A DNA stretch of 64,000 bases, taken from assembly GCA_965197395.1 (NCBI GenBank), contig OZ240205.1, forward strand, positions 1,787,107-1,851,106, given 5' to 3'. Below the pieces are notes generated by a model. That model worked only from the letters and a program-made list of their open reading frames with translations. It was not told the DNA's origin and searched no databases. This document shows positions 17,986-54,354 of the stretch, one piece after another. Source of the stretch: Vicinamibacterales bacterium (GTDB lineage: Bacteria > Acidobacteriota > Vicinamibacteria > Vicinamibacterales > UBA8438). The translations under genes were made by a program, and so were the position numbers. Within the stretch, counting starts at the first letter, position 1. Every line of letters starts with the position of its first letter.

Positions 17986-18297
17986 CTACTTCGCGGCCTT
18001 TCGCTTCGCAGCCCAATACGCCTTCATCCGCTTGGCCACGGCTTTCCTGCCCGCCGCCGACATCGTGCGACGCTTCTTCTTTGGCTTGGCCGCTGCCTTC
18101 TTGTTGGCCCAATGCGCCTTCAGCTTCTTGGCCAGGGCCTTGCGCGCCGCAGCAGACATCTTTCTGCGACGCTTGCGCTTCTTGGCTGTGGTCTTCCCGC
18201 CGATGATGCTGGCGGCTCGTTGGAGGGCATCGATATCGGCCTGCAGTTGTCCGATGGCGGCTTGCTTGGAGGCGATGGCTTTGGTGAGGTCGGTCAT
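17986..18297 (-). CDS. small highly basic Lys/Ala-rich protein with duplicated motif
   Basis: 103 aa. N-terminal coiled coil, then two copies of K-R-R-x-MSAA-x-RKA-x-AK-x-x-KA-x-WA-x-K. Confidence 0.55.
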   Translation of the reverse strand: MTDLTKAIASKQAAIGQLQADIDALQRAASIIGGKTTAKKRKRRRKMSAAARKALAKKLKAHWANKKAAAKPKKKRRTMSAAGRKAVAKRMKAYWAAKRKAAK

Positions 18298-19681: not shown

Positions 19682-20029
19682 GTGCGGCTTTTCTTTTCTG
19701 AAGGCGAGGTTGATGACACGCTGGAGCGTTGCGACCACCTCCGCGTCGGCGCCGCGCACTACCCACCGACGCACTCCCGGGAGTTCCCGGAGCTGGGCGT
19801 CACGCTCAGCGTCTACGAGGGCGTCGTCGATGTCGCCGTCCCGGTCACGCCAAACGCCGAGTTGTTCAACTGGACCAACCCCGAAAAGCCGGATCAACTC
19901 AAGGTGCCGGTGTCGGTGCTGTTCCAGGCGTGCAGCGAGACAATCTGCTACGTGCCGCGGACGGAGGCGCTGTCGCTGACGGTGCCGATCGAGCCGCTGC
20001 TCACCTCGGGAGCGCCGAGAGCCAGGTAG
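19682..20029 (+). CDS. DsbD_N-like domain protein (possibly N-terminally truncated)
   Basis: VSVLFQACSETICYVPRTEALSLTVPI resembles the C-terminal Cys pair of DsbD N-terminal-like domains. No signal peptide is visible and the start is doubtful. Confidence 0.35.
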   Translation: MRLFFSEGEVDDTLERCDHLRVGAAHYPPTHSREFPELGVTLSVYEGVVDVAVPVTPNAELFNWTNPEKPDQLKVPVSVLFQACSETICYVPRTEALSLTVPIEPLLTSGAPRAR

Positions 20030-20075: not shown

Positions 20076-21506
20076 TTGTCGTCACCGCAGTCGACTTCCA
20101 GCAAAGCCGTGAGAAACGAGCGTACGGTCTGGTGGCTGCGGTCGATGGCGGTCGTCGCCGTTCTCGCATCCAGCCTCCCCGACGCGCGGGCGGACGACCT
20201 CGATCAGCCAGATGGGCACGAGCCGCTCGACCAGCAGAACGAAATCGACGAAGAGCCCTTTGAGCAAGAGTACCCCCTCGTCGATTGGGGTACGCTGATC
20301 GACTTCCGGTTCGCGGCGACGGACGACGCCGTCAGCGTTCTCGACGGCGGGCTCGGCAAGACACGGTACGGCGCAGGCGCCGGGTCCGATCCGGCCGTGC
20401 CGCGCGGTGCGGATCTGTTCCGCCTGTCCCAACTGTCGTTCTGGATGGACGCGCACGCGAGTGAGACGCTGGGGCTCTTCGCACACGCGAACGTCGATGC
20501 CGAGCCGGACAAGAAGCAGCACCGCGGGCGCGTCGATCTCATCGAGGGCTTCGTCTTTTACCGCCCTCGGCTCACCGAGCGGTTTCACCTCGACGTGCGA
20601 GGCGGGGTCCTCATCCCGCCGGTCTCGCTCGAGCACCCCGGCGACGCCTGGACCACCATCTATACGATTACGCCCTCCGCGGTGAATAGCTGGGTGGGTG
20701 AAGAGGTGCGGGTCACCGGGGGTGAGCTCAACCTGCTTTGGACCGGTCTATCGCACGAGCTCGCCGTGACGGGCGCCGGTTTCGGCGGGAACGATCCCAC
20801 CGGGAGCCTGCTGGCGTTTCGCGGGTGGTCGCTTCAGGATCGGGTGAGCGGGCTTTCGGATCGGCTGCCCCTGGCACCGATTCCCTCTATCGGGCCGGGC
20901 GGCCCGTTCGCGCGCACGCAGCCGCTCTGGGTGAGCCCCTTCCGCGAGATCGATGGGCGGCTCGGCTATTACGGCGCCGCGAAGTGGGAGACCTTCGACC
21001 GGCTCATCGTGAGCGCGATGCACTTCGATAACCGATCCGACCAGGTCCAATTCGACGGCGATCAGTATGCCTGGAACACCGTCTTCGACGACGTCGGGCT
21101 GTGGTTCGCGATCCCCGGCGGTCTCGAGTTCGCCACGCAATACCTCACGGGACGGAGTCGCATGGGACGAACCCCAGGAGGTGACGATGCGGTCGCCATC
21201 GACTTCGAGGCCGCGTACGGACTGGCGAGCTATCTGCGGGGACGCCATCAGCTGAGCGTCCGATACGACACGTTCGACATTCGGGACCGAGACGTGGCGT
21301 TCGGCGCCCTCGATGACAATAATGAACGTGGCGACGCCTGGACGGTGTCGTATTGGCTCAGAACGGGGGAGCGGCATCGGCTCGCCGTCGAGTGGATGCG
21401 TGTGGATTCTGAGCGAGCAGCACGCGTGAGCCTCGGGTTGCCCCCGCAGGCCGTGGAGGATCTGTTGCAAGTGAGCTTTCGCCTCAGCCTCGGCTCTATC
21501 CTCTAA
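20076..21506 (+). CDS. putative outer-membrane beta-barrel protein
   Basis: Signal peptide (MAVVAVLASSLPDARA), then alternating hydrophobic/aromatic beta-strand pattern to the C-terminus. No named family recognised. Confidence 0.5.
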   Translation: MSSPQSTSSKAVRNERTVWWLRSMAVVAVLASSLPDARADDLDQPDGHEPLDQQNEIDEEPFEQEYPLVDWGTLIDFRFAATDDAVSVLDGGLGKTRYGAGAGSDPAVPRGADLFRLSQLSFWMDAHASETLGLFAHANVDAEPDKKQHRGRVDLIEGFVFYRPRLTERFHLDVRGGVLIPPVSLEHPGDAWTTIYTITPSAVNSWVGEEVRVTGGELNLLWTGLSHELAVTGAGFGGNDPTGSLLAFRGWSLQDRVSGLSDRLPLAPIPSIGPGGPFARTQPLWVSPFREIDGRLGYYGAAKWETFDRLIVSAMHFDNRSDQVQFDGDQYAWNTVFDDVGLWFAIPGGLEFATQYLTGRSRMGRTPGGDDAVAIDFEAAYGLASYLRGRHQLSVRYDTFDIRDRDVAFGALDDNNERGDAWTVSYWLRTGERHRLAVEWMRVDSERAARVSLGLPPQAVEDLLQVSFRLSLGSIL

Positions 21507-21516
21507 GAGGATCCGA

Positions 21517-22209
21517 GTGACAGCCTTGCCCCGCATCCCGCTTCCCATCGTTTCTCTCCTCGTCTTCGGCGCCGCTACCATCCTGGGGGCCGAGGGCGGA
21601 GCTGTCACCGGTACCGTGGAGATCCTGGACACGGGCGGTGTGAAACGGACGGTCGTGCGCGAGGTCTTCGTCTATCTCGACGGGAGCGCGGTGGCGGCGC
21701 CCACCGCGTCGCAGCCCCAGCGGTCGCGAGAGCTGAGCAGTCAGGACAAGACCTTCGTACCTCATGTACAAGTCGTCCTCGTCGGGGAGGAAGTCACCTT
21801 TCCCAATGTCGATGACATCATGCACAACGTCTTTTCCATCACGCGGGGGAACCGCTTCGATCTGGGCCTGTATAAGTCGGGCGCCGGGAAGACCCACGTT
21901 TTCGAAACGCCGGGGCTCGTCAGGGTCTACTGCAACATCCACCCGCAAATGAGCGCCTTCGTGCATGTCCGCGACAACCCGTACTTCGCGTGGGCCGAGC
22001 CCGACGGGCGCTTTCGTATCGATGACGTGCCGCCGGGCGACTACACCATCACCGTCTGGAGTGAGCAGGGTGGCACCGAGCAACCGATCTCGGTCGGGGC
22101 GCAGGGTCTCAGCGGAGTGCAGCTCGCCGTCGACGTGAGCCGCTACGAACGCAAACCCCACCTCAACAAGTTCGGGAAGCCCTACAAGAGGAAGCGTGGC
22201 CGGTACTAG
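21517..22209 (+). CDS. secreted cupredoxin-like (type-1 copper ligand set) protein with C-terminal CarboxypepD_reg-like domain
   Basis: Signal peptide, VTFPNVDDIMHNVFS (His ligand), VYCNIHPQM (Cys-x2-His-x2-Met), then DGRFRIDDVPPGDYTITVW. Confidence 0.7.
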   Translation: MTALPRIPLPIVSLLVFGAATILGAEGGAVTGTVEILDTGGVKRTVVREVFVYLDGSAVAAPTASQPQRSRELSSQDKTFVPHVQVVLVGEEVTFPNVDDIMHNVFSITRGNRFDLGLYKSGAGKTHVFETPGLVRVYCNIHPQMSAFVHVRDNPYFAWAEPDGRFRIDDVPPGDYTITVWSEQGGTEQPISVGAQGLSGVQLAVDVSRYERKPHLNKFGKPYKRKRGRY

Positions 22210-24910
22210 CAGCCCACCACGGGCTGCTTGGTCCTGGTCGCGGCTCAGCCTGCAGGCCAAGATCTTCTCGTTCTTCACTGTGATCGTCGTCGGCCTGGTC
22301 GGGCTGCTCCTGCTCTTCTCCTATCAGCAGGCCAATCAGCTGGCGGAGACCACGCTCGACGCGGCGCTGAGCTCCACGCGAATCCTCTACGAGAACTTCC
22401 AGGGCGAGCGGTTGGAAAAGCTCTCGCTGGTGAACTCCGTTGTCGCCGAGAGCCCGATCTTCAGAGCGATCGTGGCCGACGAAGAAGCGGCATACGACGG
22501 CGTGACCCTGCTCGACGCGGCCCAGGAGATGGTGCAAGGGGTCGGGAGCGATTTCATCATCGTCACGGACTACGAAGGACTCGTGCTGGCCCGCACCGAT
22601 ATGCCGGGGCGTGGCGGCGAGTCTCTCGACCACCGGTCCCTCATCGCGTCTGCCCTCGAAGGTGAGAGCGTCGCCGGTGTATGGCGCGAGGGCGAGCGCC
22701 TCTATCACGCGGTCTCCATTCCGATGATCATCGGGCCGACCATCCTGGGTACGGTGACGAGCGGTTATGCCATCGATGATCTGCTAGCGGAGGAGATCAA
22801 GCGCATCGCGGATTCCGAGATCGTGTTCTTCGCCGGCACCGGTGACGACGTATCGCTGGCCGGCACGACGTTGGGCGCCGACACCGAAGACTTCCGGGGC
22901 TGGTTTGCGGCGAGCGAGATGGTCGACGAGGCGTCCGATCTGCGTCCCTCCTTGGGACGCGAGACGTATCACGCGATTCTGCTGCCCCTCGAGACCCATG
23001 GGGGAGACAACGTCGGATTCTTCACGGCGTTGCGCTCCCGCGATCGAGAGCTTGCCGGGTTTCGCGCCTTCCAGCAGAGCGTGCTCCTGATCGGTGGGGC
23101 AGGGCTCCTGCTTGCCATCGGTGCGAGCCTGCTCGTGTCGCGAGGGATTACGGGGCCCATCAAGCGCCTGGTGACCGTGACGGACCGGATCCGGGAGGGA
23201 GACTACGACAGCCGCGTTGCGGCGGAGAGCGACGACGAAATCGGGTCGCTCGCCCATTCGTTCGGCTCCCTGCTTGACGAGCTGCGAGAGAAGCAGCTCA
23301 TGGAGAAGTACATCTCGCAGTCGGCCGCCGAGATGCTGCAGCGCAGCGGAGACAACCGTGGGCATGTCGTCGAGCGCAGGACCGTGACGGTGCTCATGTC
23401 AGACCTGCGGTCGTTCACCGCGTTGGGGGACGGGGCCACGCCAGACGAGATCGTGACGGGGATCAACCAGGCGCTGAGCCGCGAAGCCGAGCTGGTGGAG
23501 CGGTTCGGAGGGCAGGTCGACAGGTTTGTCGCCGATCGCATGATGGCGGTGTTTCGCGGTGGGGATATGGTGTGGTCTGCCCTCGGCTGCGCCCACGCCA
23601 TTCAGCAAGAGCTCGATGACGCGGGCCCGGCCGCTCGCTCGCTCCGTCCGAGCATCGGCATTTCCCAGGGAGACGCCGTGTTCGGCAATGTCGGCAGCTC
23701 GGATCGGCTCGACTACACGTTGCTAGGAGCGACCGTGCACATCGCGGGACGCCTCTGCGACGAGGCGCTCGCCGGCGACGTCCTGTTGTCGGATGAGGCC
23801 TTCCAGAGTGTCGAGGATCGCGTCGCGGCCGAACCGCTTCAGCCCCTCAAGATTCATGGCCTGGACCAATCGCTGCCGGTGTTCCTGCTCTCGGCCGGAT
23901 CTCTGAGGCAGCGACCTGCCACCGAAGCGCGCATGGGCTCGGGCACCCTGCGAGCTCCGGCGAGCGAGGTCACGGGAGCCGTGCCCGCCGTGCCCGCCGT
24001 GTCCGACCAGCCAGCCGAGCCTGTCCCGTTGTCGGCCATCAAGCCGGGCTTCGTGATTCGCAACCGGTTCAAGATCACGCGAGTGCTCGGGAGCGGCGGG
24101 ATGGGGATGGTCTTTCAGGCCCACGACCGCGAGCTCGATGAGCCCGTCGCCCTGAAGGTGCTGCGCGCCGAGATCTTGGCGGTCCCCGACATGTTGGAGA
24201 GGTTCAAGCGCGAGATCAAGCTGGCCCGCCGCATCGCCCACCGAAACGTGGTGCGGACCTTCGACTTTGGTGAGGAGAACGGGCTCAACTTCATCACCAT
24301 GGAGTACGTGCAGGGCATCACGCTGAAGCAGCTGATCCAAAGCAAGGGAGCGTTACCCGTCGCCGTGGGCCTGCGTATCGGCAAGCAGACCTGCGCCGGT
24401 CTGATCGCCGCGCACGAGCAGGGCATCGTTCATCGCGACGTCAAGCCGGAGAACATCATTCTGACGCCGACCAGTGAAGCGAAGATCATGGACTTCGGCA
24501 TCGCCCGTCCCTACGGGATGGGAGGCACCGAGGTGAACAGCGTCACCACGACCGGTATCAGTCTGGGCACACCGGATTACATGTCACCCGAGCAGGCCCA
24601 AGGCAAACAGGACCTCGATCACCGCAGCGATATCTACTCGGTAGGCGTCGTCTTGTACGAGCTCTTCACCGGTGTTCTGCCCTTCACCGGAGACACGCCG
24701 GTTGCGGTCGCCCTGAAGCACATACGCGACACCGCGGTGCCGCCCCGTGACGTGAGACCCGAGCTTCCGCCCGAGCTCGAGCCAATCATCGTCACGTGCC
24801 TCAACAAGTCACCCGCAAAGCGATTCCCCGATATGGCGAGCGTGCTCACTCAACTCGCCCACGTTGGCTCCGACCCCGAGGCGGGCCGAGCAGAACATCC
24901 CGTCGCGTGA
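22196..24910 (+). CDS. membrane sensor: periplasmic Cache-like domain, HAMP, class III nucleotidyl cyclase homology domain, Ser/Thr kinase
   Basis: Two TM segments flank a ~270-aa periplasmic region. HAMP (ITGPIKRLVTVTDRIREGDYD...). Cyclase domain (VTVLMSDLRSFT ... VDRFVADRMMAVF ... DYTLLGATVHIAGRL). Pro/Ala linker. Hanks kinase (VALKVL, HRDVKPENIIL, DFGIAR, GTPDYMSPEQ). Confidence 0.85.
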   Translation: MAGTSSPPRAAWSWSRLSLQAKIFSFFTVIVVGLVGLLLLFSYQQANQLAETTLDAALSSTRILYENFQGERLEKLSLVNSVVAESPIFRAIVADEEAAYDGVTLLDAAQEMVQGVGSDFIIVTDYEGLVLARTDMPGRGGESLDHRSLIASALEGESVAGVWREGERLYHAVSIPMIIGPTILGTVTSGYAIDDLLAEEIKRIADSEIVFFAGTGDDVSLAGTTLGADTEDFRGWFAASEMVDEASDLRPSLGRETYHAILLPLETHGGDNVGFFTALRSRDRELAGFRAFQQSVLLIGGAGLLLAIGASLLVSRGITGPIKRLVTVTDRIREGDYDSRVAAESDDEIGSLAHSFGSLLDELREKQLMEKYISQSAAEMLQRSGDNRGHVVERRTVTVLMSDLRSFTALGDGATPDEIVTGINQALSREAELVERFGGQVDRFVADRMMAVFRGGDMVWSALGCAHAIQQELDDAGPAARSLRPSIGISQGDAVFGNVGSSDRLDYTLLGATVHIAGRLCDEALAGDVLLSDEAFQSVEDRVAAEPLQPLKIHGLDQSLPVFLLSAGSLRQRPATEARMGSGTLRAPASEVTGAVPAVPAVSDQPAEPVPLSAIKPGFVIRNRFKITRVLGSGGMGMVFQAHDRELDEPVALKVLRAEILAVPDMLERFKREIKLARRIAHRNVVRTFDFGEENGLNFITMEYVQGITLKQLIQSKGALPVAVGLRIGKQTCAGLIAAHEQGIVHRDVKPENIILTPTSEAKIMDFGIARPYGMGGTEVNSVTTTGISLGTPDYMSPEQAQGKQDLDHRSDIYSVGVVLYELFTGVLPFTGDTPVAVALKHIRDTAVPPRDVRPELPPELEPIIVTCLNKSPAKRFPDMASVLTQLAHVGSDPEAGRAEHPVA

Positions 24911-25899: not shown

Positions 25900-27447
25900 T
25901 CACGGCCGCTGTTCGGTCTCGGCCGCGAGCCGTTCGAGCAGGGCAGCGTCGATCGAGCGCTTGACCGTTCGCCGGTCGAGATCCAGACGTCTGGCCGTTT
26001 CCTGATAGCTCCCGGTTCTTGCGTAGACGAACGTGCAGTATCGCCGGACGAGCTCCTTGGCCGTGACGCCGCCATCGCGCAACGCCTCGCTGAGCTCGGC
26101 GCGGGCACCCGTCGTTGGAGCGGCGAGTGGGTGATACCGCTTGCGCACGAGCACGTTGCGCACGCATTGTTCGAGCTCTCTCACGTTGCCGCGCCACGCA
26201 TAGTCGGGGCCCAGATCCCGGTCCACGCAGGCCAGCACCTCTTCTGCGAGATCAGCGGCCTCGTCCGTACCAACCACCCGCTCGCTGACGAACAACGCCA
26301 GGTTGCGGAGCTCGTCGGGCGAGTCACGCAGCTGTTCGCGGAGCGATGGGGTCACGATCAGGTCCGAGCAGAGCCGGTAGTAGAGATCTTCCCGGAAGCG
26401 ACCGGCCCGCATTTCGGCCTCGAGGTCGCGGTTGGTCGAGGCGATCAGCTTGCCCTGAAATCCGCGAGAGGTCGTCTCGCCGATGCGCTGCAACTCGCGT
26501 GTCTGTAACACGCGCAGCAGCTTGACCTGAATCGAGGCGTCGAGCTCGCCGATCTCGTCGAGCAGCACGGTGCCGAGCGGCGGACACGATTCCAACCAGC
26601 CGACGCGGTCCTCCAGGGCCCCCGTGAAGGCGCCCTTCCGGTGCCCGAACAGCTCCGATTCGATGAGCGTCGGCGACAGCGCCGACAGATTGAGCGCATG
26701 GAAGGACCCTTCGAGGGTGGCCACGAAGGTCTCCCTGTTGGGGTCAAACGGGATGTATCTCGAGAGCGCGATGGCTCGGGCGACCAGCTCCTTGCCCGTA
26801 CCCGAGGGGCCGGTCACCAGTGTGGTGACGTCGTGCATGCGGCGGAACAGCGAGCGCTGGTAGCGGCGCATGTCGTGCGTGAAGATCGATTGCCACACGG
26901 CAGCGCGCAGATTGGCCGCGGGCCGCGACCCGCCGACGATGTGCCGGAAGATGAGGTCGAACGCGCGACGGAGCTGATAGAAGAAGGCGAACAGATGGGG
27001 TGGGTCGACGGTGCCGGGGAACCGCACGCCGTCGAGCATCAGGAAATGCCGAACGTCATCGCAAAAGCGCTGGTAGAGCTTCAGCCGACGCCGCCCGCGG
27101 GCCGGATCGATGTGGACCTGGTGGAATTTTTCGGCGTAGCGCACGTAGAGCGCGTAGGCGACGATGTAGGCGTAGAGCGCGAGCTCCTTGGGGGTTGCGG
27201 ATCCAGGTTGGAGCAATCGCTCTCGGGTGTCCCGCGCTACCCGCTCCGCAATGGCACCGACCTGCTCGAGGGCCGTGGTCCCGGCTTGGGGTTCCGCCCG
27301 CAGGCTCCAGACCGATCCCTGTGGAACGAAGTCCGGACCGAGAATCGCCCGTTGTCGCTCGATGAACTCGGCGTCGAACGGATTGCAGTACGTCAGCCGC
27401 GCCAGCGACTCGATCGCCTGTCGATCCTGTGACTGGAAGAGTGGCAT
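25900..27447 (-). CDS. sigma-54-dependent transcriptional activator (bEBP) with non-receiver N-terminal domain
   Basis: Walker [31 protein letters not shown] (GAFTGA loop), [18 protein letters not shown]-terminal [23 protein letters not shown]. Confidence 0.9.
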
Positions 27448-52812: not shown

Positions 52813-54354
52813 ATGACCGAGCCCCGAATTTGCCCGACGTGTAAGGCCGAGATTCCCGCCGACGCCCCACCGGGCGTCTGCCCCTTCTGCGCGCTCCGCG
52901 CGGGGTATCGGCGGGAAGCGACGACCCTGCCCGGGTCCGGCGCCTCCGAGGCGCCGCCGCTGTCACCCGAGGAGCTGAGCCGGCGGTTGCCGGAGCTCGA
53001 GGAGTTCAGCCTGATTGGTCCGGGCGGCATGGGTACCGTCTACCGCGCCCGCCACCGGGAGCTCGAGCGGCCGGTCGCCGTGAAGGTGATCCACGCGCAC
53101 CTCCTCGAGCGCGAGGGGTTTCGAGACCGATTCGCTCGCGAAGCGCGTACGCTGGCACGGCTGGACCATCCGAACATCGTCAAGGTCTACGACTTTGGGC
53201 AGCGCGAGCGTCTCTACTATTTGATCATGGAGCTGGTCGATGGCGTCACGCTGCGTCAAGCCATCGACGAGGGCGCCATCGAGCCGAAGGAGGCGCTGTC
53301 GCTAGTGCCTCGGATCTGCGAGGCGCTGCAATACGCGCACGACCAGGGAATCGTGCACCGCGACATCAAGCCCGACAACATCCTGCTCGATCGACAGGGC
53401 GCGCTGAAGATCGCCGACTTCGGGCTGGCGAAGCTCGTCGGGACGGCAACAGAACCCCGCCTCACCCGCACGGAACAGGTGATGGGCACGCCCCACTACA
53501 TGGCGCCCGAACAGATCGAGACGCCTGCTCACGTCGACCATCGGGCGGACATCTACGCCCTCGGCGTCGTGTTCTACGAGATGTTGACAGGCGAGCTGCC
53601 CGTCGGGCGGTTTCCGCGACCCTCGAAGCGCGTGGGTATCGATGTGCGCCTCGATCGGGTCGTGCTGCGCACGCTGGAGAAGCAGCCAAGTCTACGGTAT
53701 CAGCGTGCTCGCGACTTGAAGACAGAGGTCGAAGCGCTGTCCGATCCGGACCACACGCCAACGGCACACGCGCGCCGCTCGCCCGGTGAGCGCGACGGCG
53801 CGTCGGATGACGACCTGTGGGGGTCGGCGTATCTCGGCTCGATCGGGGACGAGAGTGAGTGGGATTCAGAGATGCTCTGGAGCCGGCGGTCTCGCGGCTA
53901 CGAGTATCGGTCGGAGAAGACGCTCTGGGGACTGCCCCTCATCCATGTCCTCTTCAGCGCCGACCGGATGGGGGTCGCGCGCGGCGTCGTTGCGATCGGC
54001 GAACGGGCCGTCGGGTTGGTGGCCGTTGGAGGCATGGCGGTCGGTGGTATCACGTTGGGTGGTATCAGCCTCGGCCTCTTCAGCCTCGGGGGTATCGCGC
54101 TCGGCCTTCTGGTCGGCCTCGGTGGTTTGGCGTTCGGCGGTATCGCCGCCGGCGGCGTAGCGATGGGGTTGGCCGCGACCGGCGCGGAGGCCCGGAGCTT
54201 CCTCGATCTCTCGGCAGAGAATGTCGAGCAGGTCGGGTTCGTCGCGTGGGCAGTGGGTACGGCTGCGTCCTTCGTGGCCGTCGCCGCGGTGCTGATGTGG
54301 CTCACCGCGACCGGCGGCCGGGCTCGCGGCAAGACTAGTCGGAAGGCAGGCTGA
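52813..54354 (+). CDS. Ser/Thr protein kinase with N-terminal zinc ribbon and Gly-rich polytopic C-terminus
   Basis: [55 protein letters not shown]. The tail is made of GG-x3-GG repeats ([22 protein letters not shown]...). Confidence 0.85.

Follow-up and report, generated by a model that had tools for sequence, protein, structure and literature searches.

A copper protein gene paired with dCache_3-HAMP receptor genes of varying output, and a cyclase-kinase receptor of this type in a Vicinamibacterales bacterium

Examination of a 64,000-nucleotide stretch of DNA from a Vicinamibacterales bacterium (contig OZ240205.1; hereafter the window), together with related loci in other genomes, revealed a conserved unit that comprises a type-1 copper protein and a dCache_3-HAMP membrane sensor, the cytoplasmic output of which differs between lineages. 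In the window the sensor is a receptor in which a class III cyclase homology domain with an altered active site lies ahead of a PknB-like Ser/Thr kinase, and the pair is preceded by a gene for an outer membrane barrel. Paper searches returned no description of this copper protein–receptor pairing.

The three genes, designated A, B and C, are co-directional on the + strand, as are all features described below. The ORF list places them at 20076–21506, 21517–22209 and 22196–24910, with a 10 nt gap between A and B and a 14 nt overlap between B and C, in agreement with the tight cluster and spacing of the original prediction. Both GTG starts are preceded by GAGGA Shine-Dalgarno motifs, that of B being located 5 nt before the GTG, and the overlapping or abutting B and C starts are consistent with translational coupling. 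Gene A (20076–21506) encodes a signal peptide and an outer membrane porin-like beta-barrel without any match to a Pfam or NCBIfam family. Its AlphaFold2 model (pLDDT 85.6) is a 16-strand barrel, which with the signal peptide corresponds to the architecture of a Gram-negative general porin, and the best structural matches in the PDB (Foldseek) are general and specific porins, namely chitoporin, OmpT/OmpU, OprP/OprO and DcaP, with E-values down to 4e-12. Since near-identical proteins are annotated at 453–467 aa, the start of A is uncertain, and the true start may lie at ∼20127–20145.

Gene B (21517–22209) encodes an exported 230-aa amicyanin-like copper protein, in which a signal or anchor at the N-terminus is followed by an amicyanin-like cupredoxin domain, a CarboxypepD_reg-like beta-sandwich and, at the C-terminus, a basic tail that is conserved. 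Searches of Pfam and NCBIfam gave no match to a cupredoxin model, only fn3_3 and CarboxypepD_reg being matched, both in the second domain. The cupredoxin fold is evident from the AlphaFold2 model (pLDDT 87), which matches purple cupredoxin 5fc9, amicyanin, pseudoazurin and plastocyanin, with 5fc9 and amicyanin as the best Foldseek matches (target TM-score ∼0.7, E-values of ∼1e-6 to 1e-7). The sequence also aligns to blue-copper proteins, with ligands matching those of 9cck and pseudoazurin, and the complete type-1 ligand set that had been predicted (21823–21951) was confirmed as H103 (21823–21825), C139 (21931–21933), H142 (21940–21942) and M145 (21949–21951), the ligand loop being of the amicyanin type, C-x2-H-x2-M. 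All four residues are invariant in the 121 closest homologues of B, and likewise in betaproteobacterial homologues; a motif scan across all loci recovered the ligand motif in 160 of 163 B-like genes, and one of the three misses has all four residues on inspection. The C-terminal tail (RKPHLNKFGKPYKRKRGRY; 22150–22206) has the motif HxNKxGxxY with H215, N217, K218, G220, Y223 and Y230 near-invariant. It is encoded at 80 of the 84 loci whose sensor is of the kinase type, versus 4 of the 22 whose sensor has another output.

Gene C (22196–24910) encodes a 904-aa transmembrane receptor. Pfam matches to HAMP, Guanylate_cyc and Pkinase, with transmembrane segments read from the sequence, upheld the predicted order of transmembrane segment, Cache-like domain (here dCache_3-like), transmembrane segment, HAMP, class III cyclase domain, linker and Hanks kinase (here PknB-like), and the same Pfam set was found in ∼58 full-length orthologues. 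The periplasmic sensor domain (aa 46–292; 22331–23071), flanked by TM1 (aa ∼23–43) and TM2 (aa ∼293–315), is matched weakly by Pfam, with dCache_3 (PF14827) at 24.4 bits versus a gathering score of 25.7 and sCache_3_2, also just under its cut-off, at 24.4 bits. Among the 66 sensors encoded beside B genes, 42 have a significant dCache_3 match (best E-value 1.5e-18), as do the sensors P0363, P0364 and L172; the periplasmic domain of C is homologous to that of P0364, a canonical cyclase. HAMP (aa 313–365; 23132–23290; PF00672, 53.8 bits, E-value 2.5e-14) precedes the cyclase domain, which is joined to the kinase by a Pro/Ala-rich linker (aa 571–620; 23906–24055) that is poorly conserved, with a mean identity to orthologues of 34% versus 55–64% for the folded domains of C. 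The kinase domain (aa 621–886; 24056–24853) matches PF00069 at aa 626–877 (E-value 1.6e-48) and Mycobacterium tuberculosis PknB (1mru; E-value 5e-63). It contains VALK, RFKRE, HRDVKPEN, DFG and an activation-loop T-x-T, so that the catalytic Lys and alpha-C Glu, the HRD and DFG motifs and the activation-loop Thr of a Hanks-type kinase are all intact.

The cyclase homology domain (aa 395–570; 23378–23905) was delimited by a PF00211 match at aa 395–555 (33.7 bits versus a cut-off of 21.9) and by residue alignments, and matches Cya2 (2w01) with an E-value of 2.8e-20. HMMER alignments to Cya2, CyaB (3r5g) and bPAC reproduced all of the predicted residue calls: metal-binding D403 and D447 are kept, as is R519, whereas R443 occupies the Lys site and H515 the transition-state Asn site, such that the canonical Lys and Asn are not at the catalytic positions. 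T508 is a class IIIb marker, and further changes comprise SFT for GFT and AD for GD. Among the features of a competent cyclase, therefore, the fold, two Asp, Arg and Thr are present, but Lys and Asn are not. Among orthologues, the Asp pair is kept in 57 of 58 and His at position 515 is fixed in ∼55 of 58, whereas Arg443 is confined to the window and its four closest relatives, with Lys in the remainder; the Lys-to-Arg exchange is a recent change. In outgroup cyclase domains the corresponding positions are near-invariant (GFT Gly in 125, Lys in 144 and GD Gly in 145 of 146), the transition-state Asn is found in 138 of the 149 nearest cyclase domains, and the nearest free cyclase domains, with ∼41% identity, are canonical (D,K,D,T,N,R). 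Sensors with a cyclase domain ahead of the kinase form a single clade in this sampling. Every member has two to four substitutions at near-invariant active-site positions, in patterns that vary by sub-lineage (SFT/R/AD/H in that of the window, and AHA/H, with AHA for GFT, in most orthologues), and the branch containing P0059, P0061 and L053 has lost all catalytic residues, with the domain itself retained. Mean clade identity is 57.5% for the cyclase domain versus 55% for the periplasmic domain, and this equal conservation, with fixation of the Asn-to-His exchange, indicates that the cyclase domain has been remodelled and is not decaying. The label 'degenerate' in the original prediction was accordingly too strong, given that the exchange is family-wide, that the domain is conserved to the same extent as the periplasmic domain, and that Rv1900c is described as an active cyclase with His at the transition-state Asn position (PMC4886424). 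An active cyclase with Ala at this position, Ma1120, has also been described.

The genomic distribution of the pair was examined by a scan that gave at least 593 matching stretches in species-representative genomes, mostly of Acidobacteriota. All 72 informative genome loci, i.e. those with enough sequence downstream of B, have a dCache_3-like sensor gene within 600 nt after the B gene. For nine metagenome loci missed by the sensor HMM, a sensor-type gene is beside B or one gene away in eight (L136 being left out), with the gene immediately after B encoding an HD_5 or HisKA sensor in four of these, and with B and the sensor gene separated by a barrel-like gene in the other four. What the partner sensors have in common is confined to the periplasmic/HAMP part. 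Their output is most commonly a Ser/Thr kinase (57 of 66), the others including canonical cyclases (P0364 and P0366), HisKA/HATPase_c with or without a receiver domain, HD_5 (HD-GYP-like) and, in Caballeronia and Comamonas, GGDEF-EAL. The neighbourhood is not conserved as a set of three genes, the B–sensor pair being kept whereas porin family A adjoins it only in the window, two close relatives and locus L002. Elsewhere, family A is found in unrelated gene contexts, and at least three further barrel families, sequence-unrelated to A, occupy equivalent positions in other lineages, giving four unrelated families, A included, that adjoin B–sensor pairs. A B-like gene on S. meliloti pSymA has no adjacent sensor, its neighbours being SCO and Sox genes. 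Locus L089 is flanked by multihaem cytochrome and thioredoxin-like genes. In some relatives the cluster is broken by insertion elements, and in L081-83 the sensor is annotated as two ORFs.

The reading that is tentatively preferred, and that falls only a little short of an even chance, is that B and C constitute a two-protein envelope sensor, served in this lineage by porin A, with the cyclase domain acting as a transducer. The metalation or oxidation state of B, as co-sensor, would alter its contact with the dCache_3-like domain of C, and the signal would pass through TM2 and HAMP to control how active the PknB-like kinase is; this kinase would autophosphorylate on its activation-loop Thr residues and phosphorylate further targets. 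In the clade of the window, a class IIIb cyclase domain presumably entered the receptor between HAMP and the linker that leads to the kinase, the probable source being a paralogous cupredoxin-associated dCache_3-HAMP cyclase, and its active site was remodelled afterwards; the domain would most likely serve as an obligate-dimer transducer or nucleotide-binding module under HAMP, with little or no cyclase output. Poor conservation of the ∼50-residue linker argues against a rigid conformational relay. A periplasmic copper or redox signal, as put forward in the original prediction, is still the best available reading of these sequences, with B–sensor adjacency being universal among the informative loci and surviving output swaps. 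The lack of conserved adjacency of family A counts against a role for the porin, although the unrelated barrels at equivalent positions in other lineages mean that a three-part logic may still hold.

Cyclase activity in C is nevertheless quite possible, since the domain is under purifying selection, the Asp pair and Arg are kept, and active cyclases with His or Ala at the Asn position have been described. The receptor could then be bifunctional, a single signal giving rise to both cyclic nucleotide and phosphorylation, with Arg443 possibly shifting base preference. Retention of Thr508, near-universal His515, conservation equal to that of the periplasmic domain, and the canonical nature of the cyclase P0364, which is the closest relative and comes from a similar type of locus, would all fit with this. 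Set against it are the loss of the GFT Gly, Lys and GD Gly that outgroups almost invariably retain, the presence of AHA in most orthologues, the variation of the changes between sub-lineages, persistence of the domain in the P0059/P0061/L053 branch without catalytic residues, and the lack of any match to a cyclic-nucleotide-binding domain among the neighbouring genes scanned, such that a bifunctional receptor is considered rather unlikely.

A different objection concerns the copper protein. dCache domains are mostly direct binders of small ligands (Cache survey, PMC4822843), and thus C may not need B in order to sense. B could then be an ordinary periplasmic electron carrier or copper handler, with C sensing a small molecule via its dCache pocket, and the two linked only through a co-regulated copper/redox process that also uses the porin. 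The sensor-less gene beside SCO and Sox genes in S. meliloti, which indicates that the copper protein can work without a sensor, and the cytochrome and thioredoxin-like genes around L089, lend themselves to this explanation. However, adjacency of B and sensor, with start/stop overlap, outlasts repeated replacement of the output and extends across phyla, a pattern expected of an obligate partner and not of an effector, because regulated genes should change with output type; an independent role for B is accordingly judged improbable. Chance juxtaposition of the genes, with the cyclase domain a functionless, decaying fusion remnant, would accommodate the insertion elements, the split sensor of L081-83 and the restriction of porin family A to close relatives, but is disfavoured by the conservation data, as B–C adjacency is without exception in the 72 loci, His515 is fixed, and the cyclase domain is far better conserved than the linker (57.5% versus 34% mean clade identity), and it would seem scarcely credible.

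The preferred two-protein sensor may be an instance of something broader. A possible, if doubtful, extension is that porin, type-1 copper protein and dCache_3-HAMP sensor form a widespread, undescribed trans-envelope module, in which the receptor reads the cupredoxin as the element sensitive to redox state or copper, the porin either brings in the stimulus or holds the cupredoxin in place, and the outputs are domain-swapped. If so, the module would have been joined to nearly all bacterial output chemistries, from Ser/Thr kinase and cyclase to histidine kinase, HD-GYP and GGDEF-EAL, and the cyclase-kinase receptor of the window would represent a natural swapping intermediate, its cyclase fold repurposed to regulate a kinase. 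The pairing is found in hundreds of genomes of soil bacteria, in most cases together with an outer membrane pore gene, and suggests an unstudied form of extracellular copper or redox sensing.

Sensor kinases that signal via a periplasmic partner protein are known from LuxP-LuxQ and TorT-TorS (reviewed in PMC8050422). As in those systems, a small exported protein is encoded beside a membrane sensor whose periplasmic domain is of the tandem-PAS/Cache type, and ligand binding is attributed to the partner rather than to the sensor. Here, however, a type-1 cupredoxin that carries an additional beta-sandwich takes the place of a solute-binding protein, its interaction with C is putative, signalling leads to a Hanks kinase that may or may not be accompanied by a cyclase domain, and an outer membrane barrel gene is usually linked. 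The arrangement also resembles YfiBNR (TpbB), with an outer membrane part, a small periplasmic protein and an inner membrane sensor comprising a PAS-like periplasmic domain, HAMP and a cytoplasmic output domain. Membership of that system was rejected because the components are not homologous, the NCBIfam matches being confined to the HAMP region (YfiN, 25.3 versus 325 bits; YfiR-associated kinase model, 35.7 versus 194). YfiB is an OmpA-like lipoprotein and not a porin, and YfiR is not a metalloprotein. Homologues of B with 30–37% identity and identical copper ligands occur in Proteobacteria under the PGAP names 'methylamine utilization protein' and 'carboxypeptidase regulatory-like domain-containing protein'; despite the former name, no mau genes were found in any locus examined. 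Those of Caballeronia and Comamonas are directly followed by a dCache_3-HAMP sensor, with GGDEF-EAL output, and lack the C-terminal tail of B.

The cyclase domain shares with CyaB (3r5g) and Cya2 (2w01) the fold, class IIIb Thr, metal Asp pair, Arg and a HAMP domain directly upstream, and with Rv1900c the replacement of the transition-state Asn by His (PMC4886424). C differs in that Lys is replaced by Arg, the GFT Gly by Ser and the GD Gly by Ala, and in the kinase fused downstream. The TOMM kinase/cyclase fusion (TIGR03903) likewise unites, in one bacterial protein, a Hanks kinase with a class III cyclase domain; assignment of C to this family was rejected, the match scoring 152.7 versus a cut-off of 705.75 bits and covering only model positions 4–211 of 1267, in the kinase region. 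Proteins of the TOMM family are cytoplasmic and have the kinase before the cyclase. Finally, the animal receptor guanylyl cyclases (e.g. NPR-A, 9bcv) are likewise receptors of single-pass type that combine protein kinase and class III cyclase folds in one chain, one of the two being atypical; in these a pseudokinase is followed by an active cyclase, whereas in C an atypical cyclase domain is followed by an intact kinase, and the two arrangements are of independent origin.

Open reading frame calls place three co-directional genes in a compact cluster, comprising A (20076-21506), which encodes a porin-like barrel, B (21517-22209), which encodes a 230-aa type-1 copper protein (cupredoxin), and C (22196-24910), which encodes a 904-aa receptor. 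The spacing in the original prediction, a 10 nt gap between A and B and a 14 nt overlap of B with C, was borne out. The GTG starts of B and C are each preceded, 3-5 nt 5', by a GAGGA Shine-Dalgarno motif, and G+C content is ∼65% across the whole cluster; the start of A is uncertain, since near-identical proteins have been called at 453-467 aa. No convincing promoters or terminators were found inside the cluster, site counts being close to shuffle expectation. A downstream sigma-54 activator gene (25900-27447, minus strand) was rejected as a member of the system, as it is not conserved beside the pair in relatives. Upstream, 46 nt from porin A, a 115-aa ORF (19682-20029, plus strand) gives a DsbD_N match (E 6e-8) that covers profile positions 47-116 only; it has no signal peptide, lies in an open frame of ∼128 codons, retains a C-x4-C pair with YxP after it, and resembles a truncated thiol-disulfide exchange domain. 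Elsewhere, the window carries a 103-aa Lys/Ala-rich ORF (17986-18297, minus strand), with two copies of a MSAAxRKAxAKxxKAxWAxK-like motif and no Pfam match, and a second Hanks-type kinase domain (53011-53733, plus strand; 224 bits with the family HMM).

A Pfam search of B returned no cupredoxin match, recognising only the second domain (fn3_3 and CarboxypepD_reg). Residues 86-151 nevertheless align to blue-copper PDB chains, namely 5fc9 (E 9e-5), the NirK-type cupredoxin of 9cck and pseudoazurin, and an AlphaFold2 model (41 sequences; pLDDT 87) is grouped by Foldseek with purple cupredoxin, amicyanin, pseudoazurin and plastocyanin. Among the 121 closest homologues the predicted type-1 copper ligands (H103, C139, H142 and M145) never vary, in keeping with the complete ligand set that had been claimed by eye, and a motif scan located them in 160 of 163 B-like genes across all loci; the ligand loop, C-x2-H-x2-M, is amicyanin-type. 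Also conserved is a basic C-terminal tail (22150-22206) with the motif HxNKxGxxY, which occurs where the sensor is of the kinase type (80 of 84 loci) far more often than where the output is another one (4 of 22), a distribution that could reflect either a lineage effect or a subtype-specific contact. A B-like protein with copper ligands but no adjacent sensor is encoded on S. meliloti pSymA (L174, 4713-5432), flanked by genes for a SCO-family protein and a metallophosphoesterase, with soxYZ and a c-type cytochrome nearby.

Within C, Pfam identifies HAMP (aa 313-365; 53.8 bits), Guanylate_cyc (aa 395-555; 33.7 bits against a cut-off of 21.9) and Pkinase (aa 626-877; E 1.6e-48) domains, while the periplasmic region (aa 75-214) matches dCache_3 and sCache_3_2 at 24.4 bits each, slightly below cut-off. 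Alignment of the kinase to M. tuberculosis PknB (1mru; E 5e-63) shows it to be intact, as proposed, in its catalytic Lys, alpha-C Glu, HRD, DFG and activation-loop T-x-T. Catalytic positions of the cyclase domain were mapped by HMMER alignment of residues 364-573 to the solved cyclases Cya2 (2w01; E 2.8e-20), CyaB (3r5g) and bPAC. The metal Asp residues are D403 and D447, the Lys position is occupied by R443, T508 is the class IIIb mark, the transition-state Asn position is H515 and the conserved Arg is R519, reproducing all of the residue calls made by eye.

These substitutions had led to the domain being described as degenerate, and its catalytic positions are indeed altered. Within the family, however, it is as conserved (57.5%) as the periplasmic domain (55%), compared with 34% for the linker. 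Across 58 orthologues (54-95% identity) both metal Asp residues and the Arg are retained, and the Asn position is His in ∼55; the Lys to Arg and GD to AD changes are confined to the window and its four closest relatives, most other orthologues having retained the Lys and exchanged GFT for AHA. Among the 146-149 nearest cyclase domains retrieved from 1.84 billion library representatives, by comparison, the canonical residue is found in 138 of 149 at the Asn position, 144 of 146 at the Lys, 145 of 146 at the Gly of GD and 125 of 146 at the Gly of GFT. Conservation combined with branch-specific changes therefore indicates that the domain has been maintained by selection yet remodelled, differently in each branch. 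In two distant members (P0059 and P0061) and at locus L053 all of the catalytic residues are gone while the domain is still present. It is possible, if somewhat doubtful, that C is a bifunctional cyclase-kinase with an active cyclase; Rv1900c is described as an active cyclase with His at the Asn position (PMC4886424), and Ma1120, according to the published text, has Ala there. The inserted domain is probably instead a HAMP-controlled dimeric or nucleotide-binding module.

The genomic context of B was examined by scanning one genome per species with the B alignment, which gave at least 593 matching stretches; the 80 best loci were analysed. Most of these 80 come from Vicinamibacteria and Thermoanaerobaculia (Acidobacteriota) and a few from Gemmatimonadota, and all 72 with enough sequence have a dCache_3-like sensor within 600 nt after B. 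Of 66 sensors, the window's included, 57 are HAMP-Pkinase proteins of ∼700 aa and only 8 have a cyclase domain; the latter form one clade in a neighbour-joining tree of concatenated B, periplasmic domain and kinase. The nearest free cyclase domains (∼41% identity) are in P0364 and P0366, canonical dCache_3-HAMP cyclases, the former being 32% identical to C over C residues 14-563, and both genes adjoin a B homologue with copper ligands retained. A metagenome scan seeded with the B-like protein beside such cyclases recovered B genes followed by dCache_3-HAMP sensors, 17 of 22 with a HisKA/HATPase_c output, four with receiver domains and three with HD_5. On Caballeronia and Comamonas plasmids a B homologue, annotated by PGAP as 'methylamine utilization protein', directly precedes a dCache_3-HAMP-GGDEF-EAL protein; in Caballeronia a group 1 truncated haemoglobin gene (L172, 4470-4865) separates DUF3034 from the B homologue, on the upstream side of this sensor. 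The commonest upstream neighbours of the pair, OPT oligopeptide transporter (28 of 57) and Peptidase_M28 (10 of 57) genes, divergent on the minus strand in L011-L078, were treated as clade synteny and set aside as a functional clue.

The third gene is less constant. The 16-strand model of A (pLDDT 85.6) has porins as its closest structural matches (chitoporin, OmpT/OmpU, OprP/OprO and DcaP), and no Pfam or NCBIfam model matched the protein. The predicted three-gene neighbourhood holds in close relatives, where A-B-C order is kept and sometimes broken by insertion elements, but not beyond them: even at E ≤ 10 with filters off, an HMM from 121 members of family A hit none of the 80 loci apart from the window and L002, and the family was rejected as an orthologous third partner. 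Its members elsewhere occupy unrelated gene contexts. Other barrel-like genes accompany the pair. Porin_5-like genes are present at 34 of the 80 genome loci, mostly directly after the sensor (gaps of -4 to +33 nt) and before B in L009 and L021; an unnamed family, A4, is divergent and upstream of cyclase-kinase loci (L001-L005, L007 and L008, with a distant copy in L080); Porin_4-like genes, at 15 metagenome loci, either separate B from the sensor or follow the sensor; and DUF3034 is upstream in Caballeronia. A4 and DUF3034 are designated barrel-like solely from signal peptides and C-terminal aromatic residues. Profile comparison detected no homology among the A, A4, Porin_5-like and Porin_4-like families; distant homology of A to the other linked families was dismissed (hhalign probabilities <3%), and only A9, another barrel-like family, and Porin_5-like are related (99%). 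Since the families are unrelated, the three-part arrangement recurs by non-orthologous replacement, which hints that signalling includes a step at the outer membrane.

Porin_5-like genes directly after kinase-type sensors (L011 10800-11894, L022, L027, L060, L064, L070, L075, L076 and others) encode ∼365-400 aa ending in ...VDLVKMF; an acidic QYFEEP past the signal peptide is similar to motifs in A (EEPFEQEYP) and A4 (EEPFEE), with homology undetectable. Among close relatives with insertion elements inside the cluster (L081/L082 3749-4612 and L087 3505-4866), an rve-type insertion has cut A down to a 274-aa remnant, and a DDE_Tnp_1 element separates B from C. ORF calling splits the sensor of L081-83 into a HAMP-cyclase part (588-611 aa) and a Pkinase part (293 aa), owing either to a frameshift or to an error in the long-read assembly.

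The best-supported reading from these comparisons is that B is a cupredoxin co-sensor read by receptor C, with the porin controlling access of the stimulus. The dCache_3 domain would respond to B's metalation or redox state, and HAMP would relay the signal to the output; in the window's clade a cyclase domain was inserted between HAMP and the kinase linker. The main argument is that the partner sensors all share the periplasmic/HAMP module and nothing else, which would make it the part with which B works. That B is a plain electron carrier, merely co-encoded with a ligand-binding sensor, is considered unlikely; the pairing persists across the exchanged outputs. Full-text literature searches found no account of a cupredoxin paired with a sensor, Cache, HAMP or kinase protein, and nothing relevant on MauL or on 'methylamine utilization protein' with GGDEF or DUF3034.

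The cyclase-kinase fusion is a modest curiosity, and the widespread cupredoxin-sensor(-porin) module the more interesting result. The receptor itself is a naturally occurring case in which to ask whether a cyclase fold is able to serve as a kinase regulatory module. If the cupredoxin is the sensing element, it would be a metalloprotein co-sensor through which the copper or redox state of the periplasm feeds into many kinds of signalling chemistry across Acidobacteriota, Gemmatimonadota and Proteobacteria, and proteins named 'methylamine utilization protein' without evidence would gain a function. These phyla are abundant in soil and sediment and, to our knowledge, their signalling there has hardly been studied. 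The logic of partner-assisted sensing is like that of LuxPQ and TorTS, and the tripartite logic like that of YfiBNR, in each case without homology. TIGR03903 matches C over the kinase region only, far under cut-off, and the kinase/cyclase combination of animal receptor guanylyl cyclases is reversed in C.
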